Source: Candidatus Binatia bacterium (GTDB taxonomy: Bacteria > Desulfobacterota > Binatia > Bin18). Taken from it: a stretch of 64,000 nucleotides of DNA. Position 1 is the stretch's first letter, and every line of letters begins with the position of its first letter. Below the pieces are notes generated by a model, which was not told the origin of the DNA, searched no databases, and saw nothing but the letters and a program-made list of their open reading frames with translations. Below are positions 1,884 through 34,281 of the stretch, in pieces. The translations under genes were made by a program, and so were the position numbers. The stretch spans positions 3,424,001-3,488,000 of the forward strand of contig OY761159.2 in NCBI GenBank assembly GCA_963664395.2. Reading direction: 5' to 3'.

Positions 1884-2127
1884 GGTAGTGTCTCACTTTG
1901 AAATTTATTCTCCTCGCCGCTGATTGCCTGCCCATCTTTTTCGACGCCCTCGTCATTTTTCTTCACTTCCTACCAATTTTGGTAGGGACAAGAGCGGCAA
2001 ATTATGCGTAGTATCCATTCTTACCAGTGAGGCCAAAATTATCAGCGAGGCCAAAACACTGCGGCAGGCGGAGTCAAGGTCCGCCATACGAGAGCGAAAT
2101 CCAAAGGATTCAAACTGAGACACTACC
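1884..2127. mobile_element. MITE copy 1 (244 bp), probably IS1-family-derived
   Basis: TIRs GGTAGTGTCTCACTTTGAA / TTCAAACTGAGACACTACC. 8-bp TSD CAGGATTC at 1876-1883 and 2128-2135. Near-identical to 29918-30159. Confidence 0.9.
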
Positions 2128-2212
2128 CAGGATTCCGGTATATATCCCACTGTCTCAATCAGCAAGAGGCTCCGTGAGTCGGGCCTTCTGCTCAATAGAA
2201 GAGTGGCATCCA

Positions 2213-2249
2213 GGCGTGGGAGTAGCTACCCGCGTCGCCGCGAATAGGC
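2213..2249 (+). promoter_or_regulatory. conserved leader hairpin motif (copy 1)
   Basis: GGCGTGGG-AGTAGCTA-CCCGCGTC-N3-GCGAATAGGC. The same architecture with compensatory changes is at 30164-30200. Confidence 0.5.
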
Positions 2250-2341
2250 AGGACATTCATAACAGTCTCTTGCTGTGATTGGGACACGGCCCGGCACTCC
2301 CGCCGGTTCGCACCCCTCACCGTTAGAGAAGGAGGCGTATC

Positions 2342-3472
2342 ATGACGGACTGGACCAACACCCGGTTGAATCTGCGGTATCGGTGGAAAACGGTGCTCAT
2401 CTGGGGCATCGGCATCGTGGGGGCATGTGTGGTGGCGTTATGGAGTGGGCGGGCGGACGCCTGGGTGCAAGACTACCAGCCCTTTCCCGATGGCAACGCC
2501 CCCGTTGTCGTCCATCGGTTTTGCCGCGGCCCTGCATGCGGTTCTCTCTCTCAACGGGATTGGCAACAGACCATCCGGTCAGTCGTGGCCGAGTGGAACA
2601 ACACGGGGTCCGCCTTTATGTTTGAAGAGCGAGGGCTCCGCAATACCGACGATCCGTGCCGCCTGCCTGGGGCCGTAGCTGTGATCGTGACCGACCCTGC
2701 GTCCCTGTGCCCAGGAGACGGGCCACTTCGCTACAATGCGAGAACGGAGTTCGGGGGAAGACAAGCACGGGTTTATATCAATGCCACCACCCGCTCTGCT
2801 CGATCCCTGAGCAGCCTTCGCCGGATGCTCCTGCACGAATTCGGCCATGTGGCGGGGCTTAATCACCCGGATGCTGCTGGACAGAATGTGACGGCCGTTA
2901 TGAATGGCACCGTCTATTACGATCACTTACAGGCCGATGATATTGCCGGCATTCAGGCGCTCTATCCAGCATCGGAGGCCCTGGCTGGCCTCCTGGAGAA
3001 CCCAGGAGACGGTTCGTCTCGGAGCGGGATCGGAATTATCTCAGGCTGGGTATGTGAGGCGAATGAGGTGACAATCGAACTGAGTGGAGATTTCTATAAG
3101 CAAGTCTGGAAGGCGGCGTATGGGACCAACCGCCCAGACACCTGGGATGTGTGCGGGGATGGGAACAACGGGTTTGGACTGCTGTTCAACTGGAACCGGC
3201 TGGGCGATGGAAAGCATAGGGTCGTGGCGCTCGTCGATGGAGTCGAACTCGGCCGGGCCACAGTGACCGTGACGACGCTCGGGGAGGAGTTCCTGCGCGG
3301 AGCCAAAGGGGAGTACGTCCTTGAGGACTTTCCCTCCCCCGGCCGTTCGGTCGTGATTGAGTGGGAAGAATCCCTTCAGAACTTCGTCATCAGACCAAGT
3401 GGGGATGAGCCAGAAGAACCACAGGAGTGCCAGTACCCGGAGATCCCGGGGGCGTGCGGGGACGATGGGTAG
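2342..3472 (+). CDS. secreted matrixin-like (peptidase M10/metzincin) metalloprotease with conserved C-terminal repeat domain
   Basis: AGGAGG RBS; N-terminal hydrophobic segment; HEFGHVAGLNH zinc motif and Met-turn (AVMN). C-terminal LENPG...SGWVC...YGT.R.DT...CGD..NGFGLLFNWN domain shared with 30268..34281. Confidence 0.85.
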   Translation: MTDWTNTRLNLRYRWKTVLIWGIGIVGACVVALWSGRADAWVQDYQPFPDGNAPVVVHRFCRGPACGSLSQRDWQQTIRSVVAEWNNTGSAFMFEERGLRNTDDPCRLPGAVAVIVTDPASLCPGDGPLRYNARTEFGGRQARVYINATTRSARSLSSLRRMLLHEFGHVAGLNHPDAAGQNVTAVMNGTVYYDHLQADDIAGIQALYPASEALAGLLENPGDGSSRSGIGIISGWVCEANEVTIELSGDFYKQVWKAAYGTNRPDTWDVCGDGNNGFGLLFNWNRLGDGKHRVVALVDGVELGRATVTVTTLGEEFLRGAKGEYVLEDFPSPGRSVVIEWEESLQNFVIRPSGDEPEEPQECQYPEIPGACGDDG

Positions 3473-3485
3473 GGTCTCAGTTTGA
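3468..3485. repeat. solo TIR of the same MITE/IS family
   Basis: GGTAGGGTCTCAGTTTGA matches the reverse complement of the MITE right TIR at 17/18 positions and supplies the TAG stop of the matrixin gene. Confidence 0.55.
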
Positions 3486-3516
3486 CACTCCCCTAACCGT
3501 CAGGCACAAAAGAGAA

Positions 3517-4777: not shown

Positions 4778-6013
4778 TCAGCCTGGGATCATTCCAAATA
4801 CGCGTAAGAATTGAAAGACGCCCAAGCCCGTCACAATGAGCACAACCGCGCTGCCCGCCATATTGGCCAGGGGGCCGTTTGTGTACGCGCCGAGGAGATT
4901 CTCCTTATTCATGACGAACAGGAGACAGCCGGCAAGGAGGGGGAGTAAGCACGCGTTGACCGCTTGGGCAAGCAGGATAGCCATCAGCGGGTGCTGCCCA
5001 AAAAAGGCCAGCCCTGTCCCAATCAGGACGATCGCACTCCACACCAGTCGAACCTTCCCGCTATGGCCGTCTCCTGACCAGCCCAGCACCCCGGCCGTGG
5101 CATAGGCGGCGGCAAGTGGGGCGGTGACGGCACTGGTCAACCCGGCGGCAAACAGGCCGGTCGCAAAAAGGAGACGCGCGTGTGAGCCGACAAGCGGCTC
5201 AAGTTGTCTGGCTATGGAGGCGGCATTTTCCAATGGCATCCCCTGGCCAAAAAAAGCCGAGGCCGCGGTTGCGACCATGGCCAGGGTGAGAACACCACCC
5301 AGACTGATCGAGAGCAGCGTATCGGCACGTGCCTCACGCAGTGCTTGTGGAGCGCGCATTGTAGCCGGCCACTTGGCTTGGACCGTACTGGCGTGCAGAA
5401 ACAAATTGTACGGAACGACTGTGGTGCCGATCAGCGCCATCACTGTCACAAATGACCCGGGGGGTATGGTCGGGCTGAAGAAGCCGGACAAGATGTCCGA
5501 GAGTGCTGGTTGGACGAGAAGAGCCGTCAGCAGAAAGACCCCACTCATGAGCACAACGAGCAGAACCAGCACGCGCTCAATAGCCGCATACGTCCCGGAC
5601 CACAGCAACCCAAAGGCCAGACCGCCAATGAGCAGGGTCCAGGCTGAGGCCGGGAGCCCGGAGACATCGGCTAAGGCCACCGCCGCGCCAAGGATATTGC
5701 CCATCTCAAACGCGGCGTTGCCACAGCCAATGCCGATGACCACAAGGGTCAGGAGCGGGATACGGAGGAGTGGGGTCTGAATAACCGTCCGCAACGCTTC
5801 GCCTAATCCACTGCGCGCAACAACACCGAGTCGGGCCGCCATTTCTTGCAGGACGAGTGTTGCAAAAATGGAAAACCCTACCGCCCACACCAGGGCAAAC
5901 CCAAACTGTGCCCCTGCGATACTAGCGGTCGTTACGGTCCCCGGACCAATAAAGGCGGCGGCAACGAGAAACCCAGGACCAAAGAGACTCTTGCGCTGCA
6001 TGCCTGAGTCCAT
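4778..6013 (-). CDS. NRAMP-family (YcsG-like) transporter
   Basis: FGPGFLVAAAFIGPGTVTT, QEMAARLG, GTTVVPYNLFLH; about 11 TM helices. Start uncertain. Confidence 0.85.
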   Translation of the reverse strand: MDSGMQRKSLFGPGFLVAAAFIGPGTVTTASIAGAQFGFALVWAVGFSIFATLVLQEMAARLGVVARSGLGEALRTVIQTPLLRIPLLTLVVIGIGCGNAAFEMGNILGAAVALADVSGLPASAWTLLIGGLAFGLLWSGTYAAIERVLVLLVVLMSGVFLLTALLVQPALSDILSGFFSPTIPPGSFVTVMALIGTTVVPYNLFLHASTVQAKWPATMRAPQALREARADTLLSISLGGVLTLAMVATAASAFFGQGMPLENAASIARQLEPLVGSHARLLFATGLFAAGLTSAVTAPLAAAYATAGVLGWSGDGHSGKVRLVWSAIVLIGTGLAFFGQHPLMAILLAQAVNACLLPLLAGCLLFVMNKENLLGAYTNGPLANMAGSAVVLIVTGLGVFQFLRVFGMIPG

Positions 6014-6163
6014 AGCATGTTTATGTGGTATAGGCCGAGACAGGTGAGAGTGAACCTCCTTTTTGAGGCACACCGCACAGCCCCTGCTGAGGCAACACCG
6101 TCTCGGGAATGGTCATCGCCCGGCGCGGATGGCGCGGATAGGGCAGGCGGCCGGCCGCGCTGG

Positions 6164-29872: not shown

Positions 29873-29917
29873 AAGCCGCTGGGCAGGGATTGAAGAATAG
29901 AATACCTACCAAACGTA

Positions 29918-30159
29918 GGTAGTGTCTCACTTTGAAATTGCTTCTCCTCGCCGCTGATTGCCTGCCCATCTTTTTCGACGCCCTCGTCATTTTTTTTCAC
30001 TTCCTACTAATTTTGGTAGGGACAAGGGCGGCAAATTATGCACAGTATCCCTTTATCAGCGAGGCTAAAATTATCAGTGAGGCCAAAACACTGCGGCAGG
30101 CGGAGTCAAGGTCCGCCATACGAGAGCGAAAGCCAAAGGATTCAAACTGAGACACTACC
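29918..30159. mobile_element. MITE copy 2 (242 bp)
   Basis: Same TIRs as copy 1. 8-bp TSD CAAACGTA at 29910-29917 and 30160-30167. Confidence 0.9.
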
Positions 30160-30163
30160 CAAA

Positions 30164-30200
30164 CGTACGGGAGTCGCGACCCGTGCGATGGCGAATAGGC
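30164..30200 (+). promoter_or_regulatory. conserved leader hairpin motif (copy 2)
   Basis: CGTACGGG-AGTCGCGA-CCCGTGCG-N3-GCGAATAGGC. Confidence 0.5.
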
Positions 30201-30267: not shown

Positions 30268-33200
30268 ATGCGGCAGCACGCAGGACGCGTACTGCTGGGA
30301 GCGATGCTGGCCTTAGTCGGGTCAAACGCTTCGGCCCAAACCCCGGCGGTAACGGTGTATTTCGGCGACTCCGCCTACTCTGTAAACGAAGGCGGCAGCG
30401 TGGCGGTGCAAGTCCAATTGAGCGCCGACCCCGAGCGCGCCCTGACCATTCCCCTGGAAGCGACACCCGGCGCCGCTATTGTGACCATCGCCGACAACGA
30501 CGATCCGGCGGTGACGGTCTCGTTTGGCTCGGCGACCTCCACCGTCACCGAAGGCTGGACCGTAGACGTGATGGTGACGCTGAGCGCCGACCCCGAGCGG
30601 ACCGTGACGATTCCAGTCGAGGCGTCGCCTGCTGCGTCCGGCGATTATTCGATACCCGGCAGTGTCACGTTTAATGCCGGCGAGACGCAAAAGCCCGTCA
30701 ATTTCGCCACGGTCGACGACACGGTGGTCGAAAACGCGGAGACGTTCACCTTATCTTTCGGCAGTGACCTGCCAGAGGGAGTCAGCGCGAGCGGTCAGAC
30801 CACCACCCAGGTGACTATTACGGACGACGACGCACCGGACCCCGGCGGGCTGGAGCTGAGCGCGCTCGCGGTGACCGATGGGGTGGGAAGCATGTACCCG
30901 GTCTTTAATCCCAGGACGTACCACTACGCCATACGTTGCCCGGATGCCACCACCTTACGCGTGACGGCAACCGCGGGAGACGCCTTGCACCAACTGACAC
31001 TGAACAATATCCCGGTACCGGGCATGGAACTGGACAAAAACGTCGTCGTGGACAGCGACCATGATATCGCAATCGAACTCAGCGGCGGCGGTGACTCGGT
31101 GACCTATATCGTGCACTGCATCCCCTCGAATTTTCCCAACATCAAGATCACCAAGAAGCAGGCTGGTGTGTCGGATGGCCTGATGTTCTTCACGCCTGCG
31201 CGGAATCTTGGCTCTCGAACTCCGGCCTTTCTGGCCATCATGGACAACAACGGCGTGCCCAGATTCGTCAGACCCTCCCCGGACAAGATTCCGCTGAACT
31301 TCCGCCGTCATGTCACCGACCTCGAGATCGACGGACGGCCCGTACACTATTCGGTCACGCACCGCCTCGGGTCGTCGTTTGACGGCGGGCACTCCCTGCT
31401 CGATGCCTCCTTCAACGTCATCGGGACCGTAGAAACGACGCACGCGGATCACACCGCCAGCCTGCATGATTTTCTGATCACCGAAGACGACACCTTCCTG
31501 TTTTTCTCCCACGGGACTGTGACCCGCGACGTTGGGGGGAATGAAAAAAGTACAGTCGAGAACGTTATTGAGGAGGTCTCGCCAACCGGAGAAGTATTGT
31601 GGAGTTGGAACTCCTGGGACCATCTGACGATCGATCCCGACTGTCTGGAGTATAGGTATGGCTTGAGATCGGACCCGCCCATTACTGCGCACATCAACGC
31701 CCTCACCTTGATCGACGGAGATGTTGTCGCGTCATCCAGGGGCTGCGCGCAAGTCGTGAGGATCAACCGGTCCGGGAAATCGGAGACGGATGACGGCACC
31801 GACCTCGTGTGGCAACTCGGCGGGACGGACCAGGACGCCGACGACCGCGCATTCCTGGCGATCAGCGGCGACGAGAGCGGCAGGAATGAATTTTGCCGGC
31901 AGCACCATGCAACGGAGACCGCTGCGGGGACGGTGGTGTTGTTCGACAACGGCGTGAACTGCCTGTCCGCGGAAATGGGCGAGCCCAATGGGCGGGAAAG
32001 AGGCGACCTCCCAACGTTCTCCAGAGCCGTAGAGTATGACATCGACACGGCCACCGGCACGGCCGAGTTCCACCGCGAGGTCCGGCTGGACCGCAGGTAC
32101 GGCTATGCTCCTTTTACCGGCAGCGTCGACATACTGGAAAACGGGCACTGGCTGATCAACTGGGGCTATCTGCGCTATGCGGATCCCAGCCTGAGCGTGG
32201 AGGAATATTCGATAGCCATCAGCGAGGTGGACGCTTCTGGCACCGAGTTGTTGCAAGTCAAAACTTGGGAGTGGGAGGGCACCTCTCGTTACAGCACGTT
32301 CCGGGTGTACCGGGAATCCGAGGCCGACGTGGAAATCCCGCTGAATCTCCCGGTGACGCTGACGCTGGAGAGCGAGCGAGCGGCAGAGAGCGCCGGGGAG
32401 ATGGTGTTCGAGGTCGAGCTGAGCGTGGCGAGTAGTGAGGAGATAACCGTAGACTATGAGACCGCGAATGGCACGGCGACGGCGGGCCAGGACTACACGG
32501 CACAGAGCGGCACGCTGAGGTTCCCGGCGAACAGTACGACCCCACAGGAGATCTGCGTCCCCATCCTCAACGACGCCATGGACGAGGCCGAGGAAGAGAC
32601 GTTTACAGTGCGGCTACGCAACGCGACGAACGCGACCTTGGCAGGTGGCGGGACAACCTTGACAGCGACGGGGACGATTACGGACGATGACGAGCCGGTG
32701 GTGGCGGTGTCATTCAAAGCGGCACGCTACACGGTGGACGAAGGCAAGGCCGTCGAGGTCACGGTGCGGCTGAGTGCCGACCCGGAACGCCAGGTGGAGA
32801 TTCCGTTGACGCGCACGCCTGGGAACAACGTGGAGCCGTCTGACTACTCGGGAGTGCCGGACATGGTCGTGTTCGAGAGCGGCGACCGTGAACGGAGTTT
32901 TTCCTTTATTGCTCTGGCCGACCAGGAGGAGGAGGCCGCCGAGACGGTCACCATCGACTTAGGCGTGCCGCTGCCGACCGGGGTGGAGCTGGGCAGTCCC
33001 GCTACGACGGTCGTGATGATTGGGAGGCTGTCCCCACTACCGCCACCACCACCGCCTGGCGGTGGCGGGGAGGACCGCCGTGACCTGCATGGTAACACCC
33101 CCGCCCAAGCGACCCGTGTCCGGCTGGGCAGTTCCGCGCCCTGGGCGTCTTCCACGGACGGGCAGATCAACCCGGCCAGCGAGGTGGATTACTTCACCCT

Positions 33201-34281
33201 CATGGTGCCGCAGGCCGGCGTGCTGGTGGTCCAGACCACCGGCTCCACCGCGACCGTGGGCATGGCATGGCAGGCCGGCGTGGAGCTGGGCAGCGCGGAC
33301 AGGGGCGGCGTGCGCCAGAACTTCCGGCTCAGCGTACCGGTGGCAGCCGGGCCGGTGGTGATTGCCGTGGCCGGGCAGGGGAGTCGGACCGGGAGTTATA
33401 CCGTAGAGACCCGCCTGATGGTGGGGTATCTGGAGAACCCCGGGAATACCTCCTTTCAGAGCGGCATCGGCGTGCTGTCGGGCTGGGTGTGTGCGGCCGA
33501 GGAAGTTGAGATCACGCTCGGGGCGTTGACCCCGCAGATGGCCGCCTACGGCACCGAGCGACTGGACACGGCCAGCAAGTGTGGGGATACGGACACCGGG
33601 TTTGGGTTGCCGTTCAACTGGAACCTGCTGGGCGACGGGGCACATGAAGTGGTCGCCCTGGTCGATGGTGTGGAATTGGACCGGGCCACCGTGACGGTGA
33701 CGACGCTAGGGCAGGAGTTTCTGCGCGGTGTTGAAGGCACGTGTACGGTGTCCGACTTTCCGAGCCTGGGCAAGACGGTCACCCTCCTGTGGCAAGAGGC
33801 GAGGCAGAACTTCGCCATTGCGGACGGCGCAGCCCCGAGTGGGGAGACTCGTTCCGGGGCGGCGGACGTGGGGTATCTGGAGAATCCGAGCCCGAACTCG
33901 TTCCAGAGTGGGGTAGGGGTGCTCTCCGGCTGGGTGTGTGAGGCCGAGGAAGTGGAGATCATGCTGGGGGACTTAGCCCCGCAGATGGCGGCCTACGGCA
34001 CCGAGCGGCTGGACACGGCCAGCGAGTGTGGGGATACGGACAATGGGTTTGGCTTATTATTCAACTGGAACCTGCTGGGCGCCGGGGAGTATGTCGTGGT
34101 GGCCCGGGTGGATGGGGAAGAACTGGGCCGGACCACCGTGCGGGTGACGACCCTGGGGGCGGAGTTTCTGCGCGGAGTTGCGGGGGAATGTACGGTCGCA
34201 GACTTCCCCATGACAGGCGAGACGGTCACGCTGGAGTGGCAACAGAACAGTCAGAACTTTGTGATTACGGATTTCGAGTGA
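30268..34281 (+). CDS. large secreted multidomain protein: Calx-beta repeats, arylsulfotransferase (ASST)-like propeller, two conserved C-terminal repeat domains
   Basis: Signal peptide ending ASA-Q; VTI.DDD Calx-beta motifs; ASST motifs LHDF, HINAL, FCRQHHA, LFDNG, SRAVEY; poly-Pro linker; tandem LENP...SGWVC domains at 33424-33819 and 33871-34278. Confidence 0.85.
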   Translation: MRQHAGRVLLGAMLALVGSNASAQTPAVTVYFGDSAYSVNEGGSVAVQVQLSADPERALTIPLEATPGAAIVTIADNDDPAVTVSFGSATSTVTEGWTVDVMVTLSADPERTVTIPVEASPAASGDYSIPGSVTFNAGETQKPVNFATVDDTVVENAETFTLSFGSDLPEGVSASGQTTTQVTITDDDAPDPGGLELSALAVTDGVGSMYPVFNPRTYHYAIRCPDATTLRVTATAGDALHQLTLNNIPVPGMELDKNVVVDSDHDIAIELSGGGDSVTYIVHCIPSNFPNIKITKKQAGVSDGLMFFTPARNLGSRTPAFLAIMDNNGVPRFVRPSPDKIPLNFRRHVTDLEIDGRPVHYSVTHRLGSSFDGGHSLLDASFNVIGTVETTHADHTASLHDFLITEDDTFLFFSHGTVTRDVGGNEKSTVENVIEEVSPTGEVLWSWNSWDHLTIDPDCLEYRYGLRSDPPITAHINALTLIDGDVVASSRGCAQVVRINRSGKSETDDGTDLVWQLGGTDQDADDRAFLAISGDESGRNEFCRQHHATETAAGTVVLFDNGVNCLSAEMGEPNGRERGDLPTFSRAVEYDIDTATGTAEFHREVRLDRRYGYAPFTGSVDILENGHWLINWGYLRYADPSLSVEEYSIAISEVDASGTELLQVKTWEWEGTSRYSTFRVYRESEADVEIPLNLPVTLTLESERAAESAGEMVFEVELSVASSEEITVDYETANGTATAGQDYTAQSGTLRFPANSTTPQEICVPILNDAMDEAEEETFTVRLRNATNATLAGGGTTLTATGTITDDDEPVVAVSFKAARYTVDEGKAVEVTVRLSADPERQVEIPLTRTPGNNVEPSDYSGVPDMVVFESGDRERSFSFIALADQEEEAAETVTIDLGVPLPTGVELGSPATTVVMIGRLSPLPPPPPPGGGGEDRRDLHGNTPAQATRVRLGSSAPWASSTDGQINPASEVDYFTLMVPQAGVLVVQTTGSTATVGMAWQAGVELGSADRGGVRQNFRLSVPVAAGPVVIAVAGQGSRTGSYTVETRLMVGYLENPGNTSFQSGIGVLSGWVCAAEEVEITLGALTPQMAAYGTERLDTASKCGDTDTGFGLPFNWNLLGDGAHEVVALVDGVELDRATVTVTTLGQEFLRGVEGTCTVSDFPSLGKTVTLLWQEARQNFAIADGAAPSGETRSGAADVGYLENPSPNSFQSGVGVLSGWVCEAEEVEIMLGDLAPQMAAYGTERLDTASECGDTDNGFGLLFNWNLLGAGEYVVVARVDGEELGRTTVRVTTLGAEFLRGVAGECTVADFPMTGETVTLEWQQNSQNFVITDFE

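Follow-up and report, generated by a model that had tools for sequence, protein, structure and literature searches.

Why a short hairpin, followed at a fixed spacing by the string GCGAATAGGC, should recur in front of two different genes is the question raised by a 64,000-nt stretch of a Candidatus Binatia bacterium genome (contig OY761159.2, positions 3,424,001 to 3,488,000; hereafter the window). The first gene (2342-3472) encodes a matrixin-like protease and the second (30268-34281) a protein with Calx-beta and arylsulfotransferase domains. An initial annotation took the 37-nt motif, found at 2213-2249 (copy 1) and 30164-30200 (copy 2), for an entire element and proposed that it was either an undescribed cis-regulatory RNA or a DNA site for recombination or protein binding. 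Comparison with related loci revealed that these limits were too narrow: the motif consists only of one hairpin (P4) and half of an internal loop, and belongs to an element about four times larger. What stands of the RNA proposal is that a structured, covarying RNA is present on the gene strand in a 5'-leader position. As judged from sequence comparison, the feature is probably P4 together with the 3' half of the conserved internal loop of a structured, cis-regulatory 5' leader of approximately 150 nt, itself an expanded relative of the small RNA (sRNA) family sRNA-Xcc1.

Within the window, both copies of the hairpin were found letter for letter as first described. All pairs of the 8-bp stem form in both copies when G-U pairs are counted (two wobbles in copy 1 and one in copy 2), and the outer stem has changed while remaining paired, with two of its five pairs differing on both sides and three on one side between the copies. 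The loop hexamers, TAGCTA in copy 1 and TCGCGA in copy 2, are each self-complementary, GCGAATAGGC starts 3 nt past the motif stem in both cases, and the distance from the motif to the start codon is 92 nt for copy 1 (ATG at 2342) and 67 nt for copy 2 (ATG at 30268). A joint pattern composed of a GGGAGT-N-GC-N-ACCC core, eight free bases and GCGAATAGGC, with up to three mismatches permitted, matched only these two copies in 64 kb and nothing in 100 shuffles. Sub-motifs taken singly were not above chance in the window; thus, the unit is the combination. An unfiltered search of the window with the full model described below uncovered no additional copy.

Related loci were obtained from a single scan of a genome collection, with one genome per species, using a relaxed pattern with 18 fixed bases. 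This yielded 21 loci, most of which share far more flanking sequence than the pattern demands, with GYCGGG and CTGCTGAATACAACAGCC conserved on the upstream side and GGCCCGGC on the downstream side. Sixteen of these sequences were used to build a covariance model (R1), against which 17 of the 21 loci gave 41-109 bits and window copy 1 gave 101.5 bits. Four loci (L003, L005, L006, and L010) had no R1 match and were set aside as chance matches to the pattern, being excluded from all alignments. Three of the related loci are partial (L008, L014, and L016) and are not counted among the 15 copies referred to here as complete; L008 and L014 were also left out of one alignment (A3). The 17 related loci, every one from a metagenome-assembled genome, represent four phyla and are distributed among Binatia/Binatota (six), Gammaproteobacteria (six), Bryobacterales of the Acidobacteriota (three), Paracoccaceae (one), and Spirochaetia (one). 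One full element is present per locus and per 64-kb window.

The element shared by 17 of the 21 scan loci extends over approximately 150 nt and consists of a long 5' helix, referred to here as helix a, followed by P1, P2, P3, and P4. The last four were proposed by RNAalifold as nested helices, in which GYCGGGYYN pairs with NRRCCCGGC (P1), YCUGCU with GGCAGG (P2), and GCC with GGC (P3), while P4 is the hairpin seen first. In 16 sequences aligned with MAFFT, the pairs of P1-P4 were formed in 93.3% of cells, compared with 84.5% in shuffled and 31-47% in slid controls, and compensatory changes were present in 11 of 27 pairs. None of 500 shuffles reached the observed values on four of five measures, and three of 500 did so on the fifth, the count of pairs changed on both sides. 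Each helix contributes: P1 (95.1% of cells paired in the nested alignment and 93.7% in the pseudoknot alignment) and P2 (96.9 and 98.1%, respectively) contain two compensatory pairs each, whereas in the nested alignment P3 has three solid pairs and one weak pair, two of them compensatory, and P4 has compensatory changes in five of its eight pairs. The covariation claimed in the initial annotation, which could not have been demonstrated from the two window copies alone, is therefore present in P4 across the related loci. Copy 1 in the window is complete, with a leader from approximately 2151 to 2295 and a competing hairpin that extends to 2306, and its parts are arranged as follows.

2139..2144, plus strand: candidate -10 hexamer TATATA (8/12 in the promoter scan of this analysis)
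2151..2169, plus strand: helix a 5' strand, outer part 2151-2159 and inner part 2162-2169 (minimum free energy fold, duplex energies, covariation)
2178..2186, plus strand: P1 5' strand GTCGGGCCT, which pairs with 2287-2295 and crosses helix a (covariation)
2187..2192, plus strand: P2 5' strand TCTGCT, which pairs with 2247-2252 (covariation)
2193..2202, plus strand: 5' side of the internal loop, here CAATAGAAGA (near-invariant columns; aligns to the AAUACAA loop of sRNA-Xcc1)
2203..2206, plus strand: P3 5' strand, which pairs with 2238-2241 (covariation)
2213..2236, plus strand: P4 hairpin, its loop at 2221-2228 being AG followed by the palindrome TAGCTA (pattern match, covariation)
2238..2252, plus strand: P3 3' strand (2238-2241), loop GAATA (2242-2246) and P2 3' strand GGCAGG (2247-2252), the segment that contains GCGAATAGGC (covariation)
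2266..2286, plus strand: helix a 3' strand, inner part 2266-2273, bulge TGTG, outer part 2278-2286 (minimum free energy fold, duplex energies, covariation)
2287..2295, plus strand: P1 3' strand CGGCCCGGC (covariation)
2291..2306, plus strand: hairpin T, with CCGGC, loop ACTCCC and GCCGG, which re-uses the P1 3' strand
2330..2344, plus strand: Shine-Dalgarno sequence AGGAGG (2330-2335) and ATG (2342-2344) of the matrixin-like gene at 2342-3472

Helix a is formed by approximately 20 nt upstream of P1 and the stretch between P2 and P1, which pair over some 17 bp, and it is the dominant helix in the minimum free energy fold of window copy 1. Its arms were compared without any alignment in 18 sequences, where the mean energy of cognate duplexes was -28.7 kcal/mol versus -16.2 ± 4.9 for non-cognate arms. 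Among 12 non-redundant representatives, the cognate mean was -30.5 kcal/mol versus -15.6 ± 0.95 for mismatched arms, and none of 20,000 derangements was as good. In the alignment fitted to the model, compensatory change was found in 16 of 17 pairs of helix a. Because helix a crosses P1, the two together form a pseudoknot. When both were annotated at once in 18 sequences, the 44 pairs of helix a and P1-P4 were paired in 93.0% of cells versus 73.8% in shuffled and 33-43% in slid controls, and 27 of the 44 pairs exhibited compensatory changes. A local hairpin in place of helix a, considered for L016, was unsupported, and a small GCTG/CAGC hairpin around AATACAA was replaced by the covarying P2/P3 pairing from RNAalifold.

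The pairing also reveals the strand and the kind of molecule involved. Among 717 cells, 83 are G-U and 19 are A-C, and pairing amounts to 93.0% on the gene strand versus 84.1% on the other strand; the excess of G-U over A-C cells places the structure on the strand of the downstream gene and in RNA, or at least in a single strand. Unpaired parts of the element are conserved as well. On the 5' side of the internal loop (consensus GAAUACAACA), columns are invariant or nearly so without being forced by the search pattern, and GCGAATAGGC itself proved to run from the P3 3' strand through the 3' (GAAUA) side of the internal loop into the first bases of the P2 3' strand. The hexamer in the P4 loop is self-complementary in 18 of 19 copies (TAGCTA in 13, TCATGA in four, and TCGCGA in one), the exception being TCGCTA in the degenerate locus L008, and with the flanking G and C (G-T-NNNN-A-C) it makes a perfect 8-nt palindrome in the same proportion of copies. 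Because such a palindrome is unable to pair within one hairpin, it suggests loop-loop pairing between two RNA molecules. The kissing loops of retroviral dimerization initiation sites are similar in that the self-complementary loop hexamer varies by lineage and stays self-complementary, but the P4 loop differs in that it has 8 nt with two 5' purines, and the palindrome is broken in L008. In a few loci, a further sequence near the start codon was seen by eye to complement the P4 loop, but this was inconsistent among loci and was dropped.

The element lies between a promoter-like site and a gene. The site is a pair of hexamers, typically TTGAC-N and a -10 box, whose end lies 31-38 nt upstream of P1, a few bases ahead of helix a. 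Scores of at least 8/12 were reached in 11 of 16 loci versus 7.8% of 4000 control windows, and scores of at least 9/12 in six of 16 versus 1.0% of control windows. In copy 1 only the -10 hexamer (2139-2144) remains, and the end of a miniature inverted-repeat transposable element (MITE) occupies the expected position of the -35; in other loci, a -10 equally far from P1 is accompanied by a -35 of the TTGAC type. Downstream, a same-strand open reading frame (ORF) follows the element in nearly all loci, often with a clear ribosome-binding site. Directly past P1, hairpin T pairs the CCCGGC strand with a downstream GCCGG(G). It forms in all 15 complete copies, and its stem extension covaries (CCGGCAC with GTGCCGG, CCGGCGC with GCGCCGG). 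Because hairpin T re-uses the 3' strand of P1, P1 and T are mutually exclusive. Hairpin T has no clear link to the ribosome-binding site.

The nearest relative among known RNAs is suggested by scans with Rfam models. No family reached its gathering threshold in the window or in 15 loci, which agrees with the earlier statement that the RNA was undescribed. This statement must be qualified, in that a sub-threshold match to sRNA-Xcc1 (RF02221, with a curated gathering score of 53 bits) recurred when E-value scans with cmscan were run on five loci. It was the top match in L011 (24.8 bits, E 0.017), L020 (22.9 bits), and L012 (18.8 bits), and was also seen in L021 (15.0 bits). The four matches share one register and all fall on the correct strand; they extend over model positions 1-87 in three loci and over 4-76 in L021. 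In each of them P1 (GCCGGG/CCCGGC), P2, the AAUACAA/GAAUA loops, and P3 are aligned to sRNA-Xcc1 in order, and cmscan places an insertion of 30-34 nt in the P3 loop of sRNA-Xcc1 that falls exactly at P4. Rows for abiF, sul1, microRNAs, and long noncoding RNAs in the same scans were short chance matches.

Chen et al., in 2011, are said to have called sRNA-Xcc1 trans-acting in their title and to have placed it on integrons, transposons, and plasmids. The accessible portions of published reports describe an 88-nt RNA validated by Northern blotting in Xanthomonas campestris (PMC2996969), a location upstream of symE in a widespread integron cassette, where it faces away from the cassette promoter (10.1101/2025.06.18.660453), a location upstream of an ORF6N gene in some APSE phages (10.1101/2020.03.17.996009), and several copies in Xylella (PMC12189769); an established mechanism was not encountered in these portions of the literature, and a literature search found no reinterpretation of sRNA-Xcc1 as a cis-regulatory leader. 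The present element resembles sRNA-Xcc1 in the order of its parts (a 9-bp P1, P2, an asymmetric AAUACAA/GAAUA loop, and a 3-bp G/C-rich P3) and in that members of the sRNA-Xcc1 family have been reported upstream of genes. It differs in several respects: the P4 hairpin of 30-34 nt replaces the small P3 loop of the approximately 87-nt sRNA-Xcc1, a long-range helix with a 5' extension (the pseudoknot) replaces the local hairpin between P2 and P1, and no 3' U-tail follows P1 or hairpin T in most loci. Whereas sRNA-Xcc1 is associated with integron cassettes and with Xanthomonas and its relatives, the element has no integron context in the 57 ORFs scanned and its hosts are Binatota, Acidobacteriota, Spirochaetota, and Alpha- and Gammaproteobacteria. 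On the basis of sequence and predicted fold, a true distant relationship is likely. The degenerate Bryobacterales copy in L008 (4960-5010, minus strand) lacks helix a and P1; the stretch from P2 to the 3' end folds locally into a strong hairpin. This is the arrangement of sRNA-Xcc1, and L008 is the only locus to fold a hairpin there; it may represent an intermediate form.

Taken as a cis-acting leader, the element could work as follows. The RNA would be made from the sigma-70-type promoter directly upstream and would begin with the 5' strand of helix a (about 17 bp), whose partner lies past the P2-P3-P4 arm. P1 (GYCGGG with CCCGGC) closes this arm and, in crossing helix a, creates the pseudoknot. 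The core of P1, P2, internal loop, and P3 would be that of a distant, expanded relative of sRNA-Xcc1, in which P4 has been inserted into the P3 loop and helix a has taken the place of the local hairpin. The 3' strand of P1 could then pair either with its P1 partner or within hairpin T, and which of the two forms might depend on the binding of a ligand, protein, or RNA partner to the conserved loop, or on the palindromic P4 loop. This choice would alter the translation or stability of the downstream mRNA, the element thus acting in cis. Such an arrangement is reminiscent of riboswitches, which likewise have a covarying aptamer-like domain in the 5' leader and a closing helix P1 that shares a strand with a downstream alternative hairpin. 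Unlike riboswitches, the element precedes genes that span no single pathway, and its alternative hairpin lacks the U-tail of a terminator and does not obviously block the ribosome-binding site.

Several observations weigh against a cis-acting leader related to sRNA-Xcc1. The alignment behind the pseudoknot counts (A5) was fitted to the model and is biased towards the structure, and the topology of helix a with P1, considered on paper, is sterically tight. The search pattern forced GGGAGT, CCC, and GCGAATAGG, so that their conservation is no evidence, and more divergent copies lie outside the sample. A stricter promoter scan at window copy 1 found no site of at least 9/12, which is accounted for by the MITE at the expected -35. 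No terminator-like site follows copy 1, and hairpin T has no U-tract in most loci or in the terminator scan of copy 1, so its read-out would not be that of a classical attenuator. With respect to ancestry, window copy 1 has no Rfam match even at E-values up to 10, and the sRNA-Xcc1 scores of 15-25 bits are far below the 53-bit cut-off, so that the element is not a member of RF02221 by the Rfam rule; furthermore, the four matching loci are homologous to one another and represent one resemblance, not four. Finally, the downstream genes are heterogeneous, unlike those of most riboswitches.

Some of the same observations can be explained differently. A free-standing sRNA, or one derived from the 5' untranslated region (UTR), might act in trans, with the downstream gene being incidental or the co-transcript from which it is processed. 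The promoter-like site of the element, its long 5'-terminal helix and compact fold, which would suit a stable RNA, and the detection of sRNA-Xcc1 as a discrete RNA of about 88 nt on Northern blots, in the accessible portion of that report (PMC2996969), are in line with this idea. We nevertheless regard it as unlikely, considering that no terminator-like site follows the window element, that U-tracts after hairpin T are absent in most loci, that an ORF with a ribosome-binding site is close behind in most loci, and that sRNA-Xcc1 members, too, are described upstream of symE (10.1101/2025.06.18.660453) and of an ORF6N gene (10.1101/2020.03.17.996009) in the accessible portions of those studies. 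The leader might also be a constitutive expression module, in which helix a and the compact fold shield the mRNA from 5'-end-dependent decay without sensing or switching. The 5'-terminal stem-loops of the ompA type stabilize the mRNAs of outer-membrane proteins, and the element is similar in having a helix at the predicted 5' extremity of an envelope-protein mRNA, although its much greater size, conserved loops, and pseudoknot set it apart. Helix a begins at about the predicted transcription start, most of the downstream genes appear from their N-termini, as judged by eye, to encode exported or envelope proteins, and so heterogeneous a set of genes is more in keeping with a generic expression module than with the sensing of a metabolite. 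A stabilizer, however, has no need for an invariant internal loop, a pseudoknot, or a palindrome in the P4 loop, nor for the P1-competing hairpin that all 15 complete copies possess, and this explanation seems to us improbable.

An explanation at the level of DNA, whether as a promoter (-35 GGGAGT, -10 CGAATA), an operator palindrome for a dimeric protein, an attC-type recombination site, or the ends of a small mobile element, is very improbable. The 16-nt spacing between GGGAGT and GCGAAT resembles that of alternative-sigma promoters, 18 of 19 copies have a perfect 8-nt palindrome in P4, a MITE adjoins both window copies, and the accessible part of the literature on sRNA-Xcc1 places relatives in integron cassettes. 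In contrast, the pairs covary over approximately 150 nt with 83 G-U versus 19 A-C cells, which duplex DNA would not select, and a separate promoter-like site is present upstream. An extracytoplasmic function (ECF)-type promoter was rejected because its "spacer" and flanks pair and covary as RNA, and no ECF sigma gene was found in the window. Sites of the attC type carry an inverse core RYYYAAC and a core GTTRRRY at their ends and have a variable centre; neither these cores nor flanking direct repeats were found in any of the 15 complete copies, and the element has a conserved centre and variable ends. No integron integrase was present among the 57 neighboring ORFs scanned. The initial annotation's suggestion of a DNA recombination or protein-binding site thus finds no support. 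Nor is the motif a transposon end: helix a arms differ between loci, in contrast to transposon ends, flanking 6-mers are shared in none of 15 copies, and only one full copy is present per locus and per 64 kb. Mere shared ancestry of two paralogous upstream regions with no function of their own could be imagined from the window alone, where the two genes share a C-terminal domain and the same MITE, but is hardly credible given the same structure in 17 loci of four phyla, before unrelated genes and with compensatory changes.

The genes behind the element are diverse. The initial annotation linked the motif to a repeat-domain gene family, but the domain in question, which is about 145 aa in length (LENPG...SGIG..SGW.C...GFG..FNWN.LG.G) and has no Pfam or NCBIfam match, occurs within 5 kb in only three of the 17 related loci, which severs that link. 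In the window it lies at 2940-3420 (P0001, aa 200-360) and, in two copies, at 33390-34278 (P0002, aa 1040-1337). A profile of the domain found it elsewhere in the first gene of L017 (4429-4887) and L018 (4420-4887) and in the second gene of L019 (6217-6681). It is C-terminal in the window proteins and directly follows the signal peptide in the Binatia proteins. Other downstream genes encode matrixin-like proteins (L009 and L004), a TonB-dependent receptor (L011), two CsgG-like proteins (L013), a YHYH-domain protein (L007), and a small lipoprotein (L021 and L015), and DUF3472 is among the families represented. Proteins without a convincing family match follow the element in L001, L002, L012, L016, and L020, the MsyB row for L020 being far below the cut-off, and the degenerate loci L008 and L014 have no clear ORF behind. 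Most of the downstream N-termini resemble signal peptides when judged by eye. The lipoprotein ORF is intact in L021 (4587-4919, 110 aa), whereas in L015 (5113-5451) a stop interrupts it after about 23 codons and the remainder lies in a different frame, the result of a frameshift or an assembly error.

Neighboring genes include IS1595 transposases (L001 and L002), a MobA/ArdC relaxase (L009), and VapE (L020), with housekeeping genes elsewhere. tRNA genes are located close to the leader in L002 (4720-4811, approximately 120 nt upstream of the promoter region) and L016 (3711-3782 and 6530-6600). Leader regions near tRNAs and the IS1595 transposases may be insertion hot spots. A blastn search of window positions 2148-2310 against plasmids and phages gave no match, nor did one of the L011 copy against E. 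coli genomes. Literature searches with the motif strings returned only unrelated primers, and those on riboswitches or RNA motifs of sponges and symbionts returned nothing relevant. A gene for an Nramp-type metal transporter is located on the minus strand of the window (4778-6073), 2.4 kb from copy 1; neither a manganese riboswitch nor any other Rfam family was found in the window.

Copy 2 is not the equivalent second copy that it had been taken for. R1 scores it at only 24.5 bits, with the P1 and P2 pairs flagged as non-standard (compared with 101.5 bits for copy 1), and the stretch downstream contains no partner for P1, P2, or helix a. The statement that the motif is clear of the MITE likewise fails here: stem bases 30164-30167 are part of the target-site duplication, so that the hairpin abuts the insertion. 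The features involved, including the MITE upstream of copy 1, are the following.

1884..2127, unstranded: MITE upstream of copy 1, with target duplications CAGGATTC at 1876-1883 and 2128-2135, between the expected -35 and the -10
29878..29904, plus strand: putative 5' remnant of copy 2, with P1-5'-like GCTGGGCAG at 29878-29886 and loop-like GAATAGAATA at 29895-29904, now separated from P4 by the MITE
29918..30159, unstranded: MITE inside leader copy 2, with 8-bp target duplications CAAACGTA at 29910-29917 and 30160-30167
30164..30200, plus strand: copy 2, with P4 hairpin 30164-30187 (loop AG and TCGCGA) and GCGAATAGGC at 30191-30200

When the MITE and one duplication are discounted, the remnant is 23 nt from P4, compared with 24 nt for the corresponding parts of copy 1. 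We read copy 2 as a decayed leader that was later split by the MITE, the assignment of the remnant being inferred from this spacing. The MITE is 242-244 bp in length; its terminal inverted repeats start with GGTAGTGTCTCA, and target duplications of 8 bp flank it. Both of its full copies sit upstream of leader-bearing genes, one between the expected -35 and -10 and the other within the leader, and a third, lone end that is similar to the repeat (3468-3486, three mismatches) overlaps the stop codon of the gene at 2342-3472. With the MITE discounted, the target of its first copy (1869-1883 with 2128-2145) lies inside an inverted repeat, ATATATACC ... GGTATATAT, and that of its second copy lies within the 5' arm of hairpin P4. 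The MITE may prefer hairpin-forming DNA. The window thereby offers a natural contrast between an intact leader and one split by a MITE.

Leaders of this size that possess a pseudoknot and covariation usually are riboswitches, ribozymes, or protein-binding regulators. The element described here falls below every Rfam threshold; its known occurrences are all in metagenome-assembled genomes from poorly studied phyla, where it precedes genes that mostly appear to encode exported proteins. One may speculate further, with a good deal of doubt, that it represents a new class of sensing leader, an expanded and pseudoknotted offshoot of the sRNA-Xcc1 fold that has spread horizontally as a promoter-leader module through uncultured bacteria of four phyla. 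A shared signal, either external or derived from a host, would then be sensed at the invariant internal loop and would turn on the expression of secreted and surface proteins (matrixin-like proteases, sulfotransferase and Calx-beta proteins, and TonB-dependent receptors), and the RNA would form homodimers via the palindromic P4 loop. Were this to be true, the trans-acting label of sRNA-Xcc1 would be a misreading of what is itself a cis-acting sensor. The link to sRNA-Xcc1 would in any case enlarge the family of a widespread RNA of mobile elements, and it suggests that the internal loop shared by its members is the functional site and that the family may act in cis.

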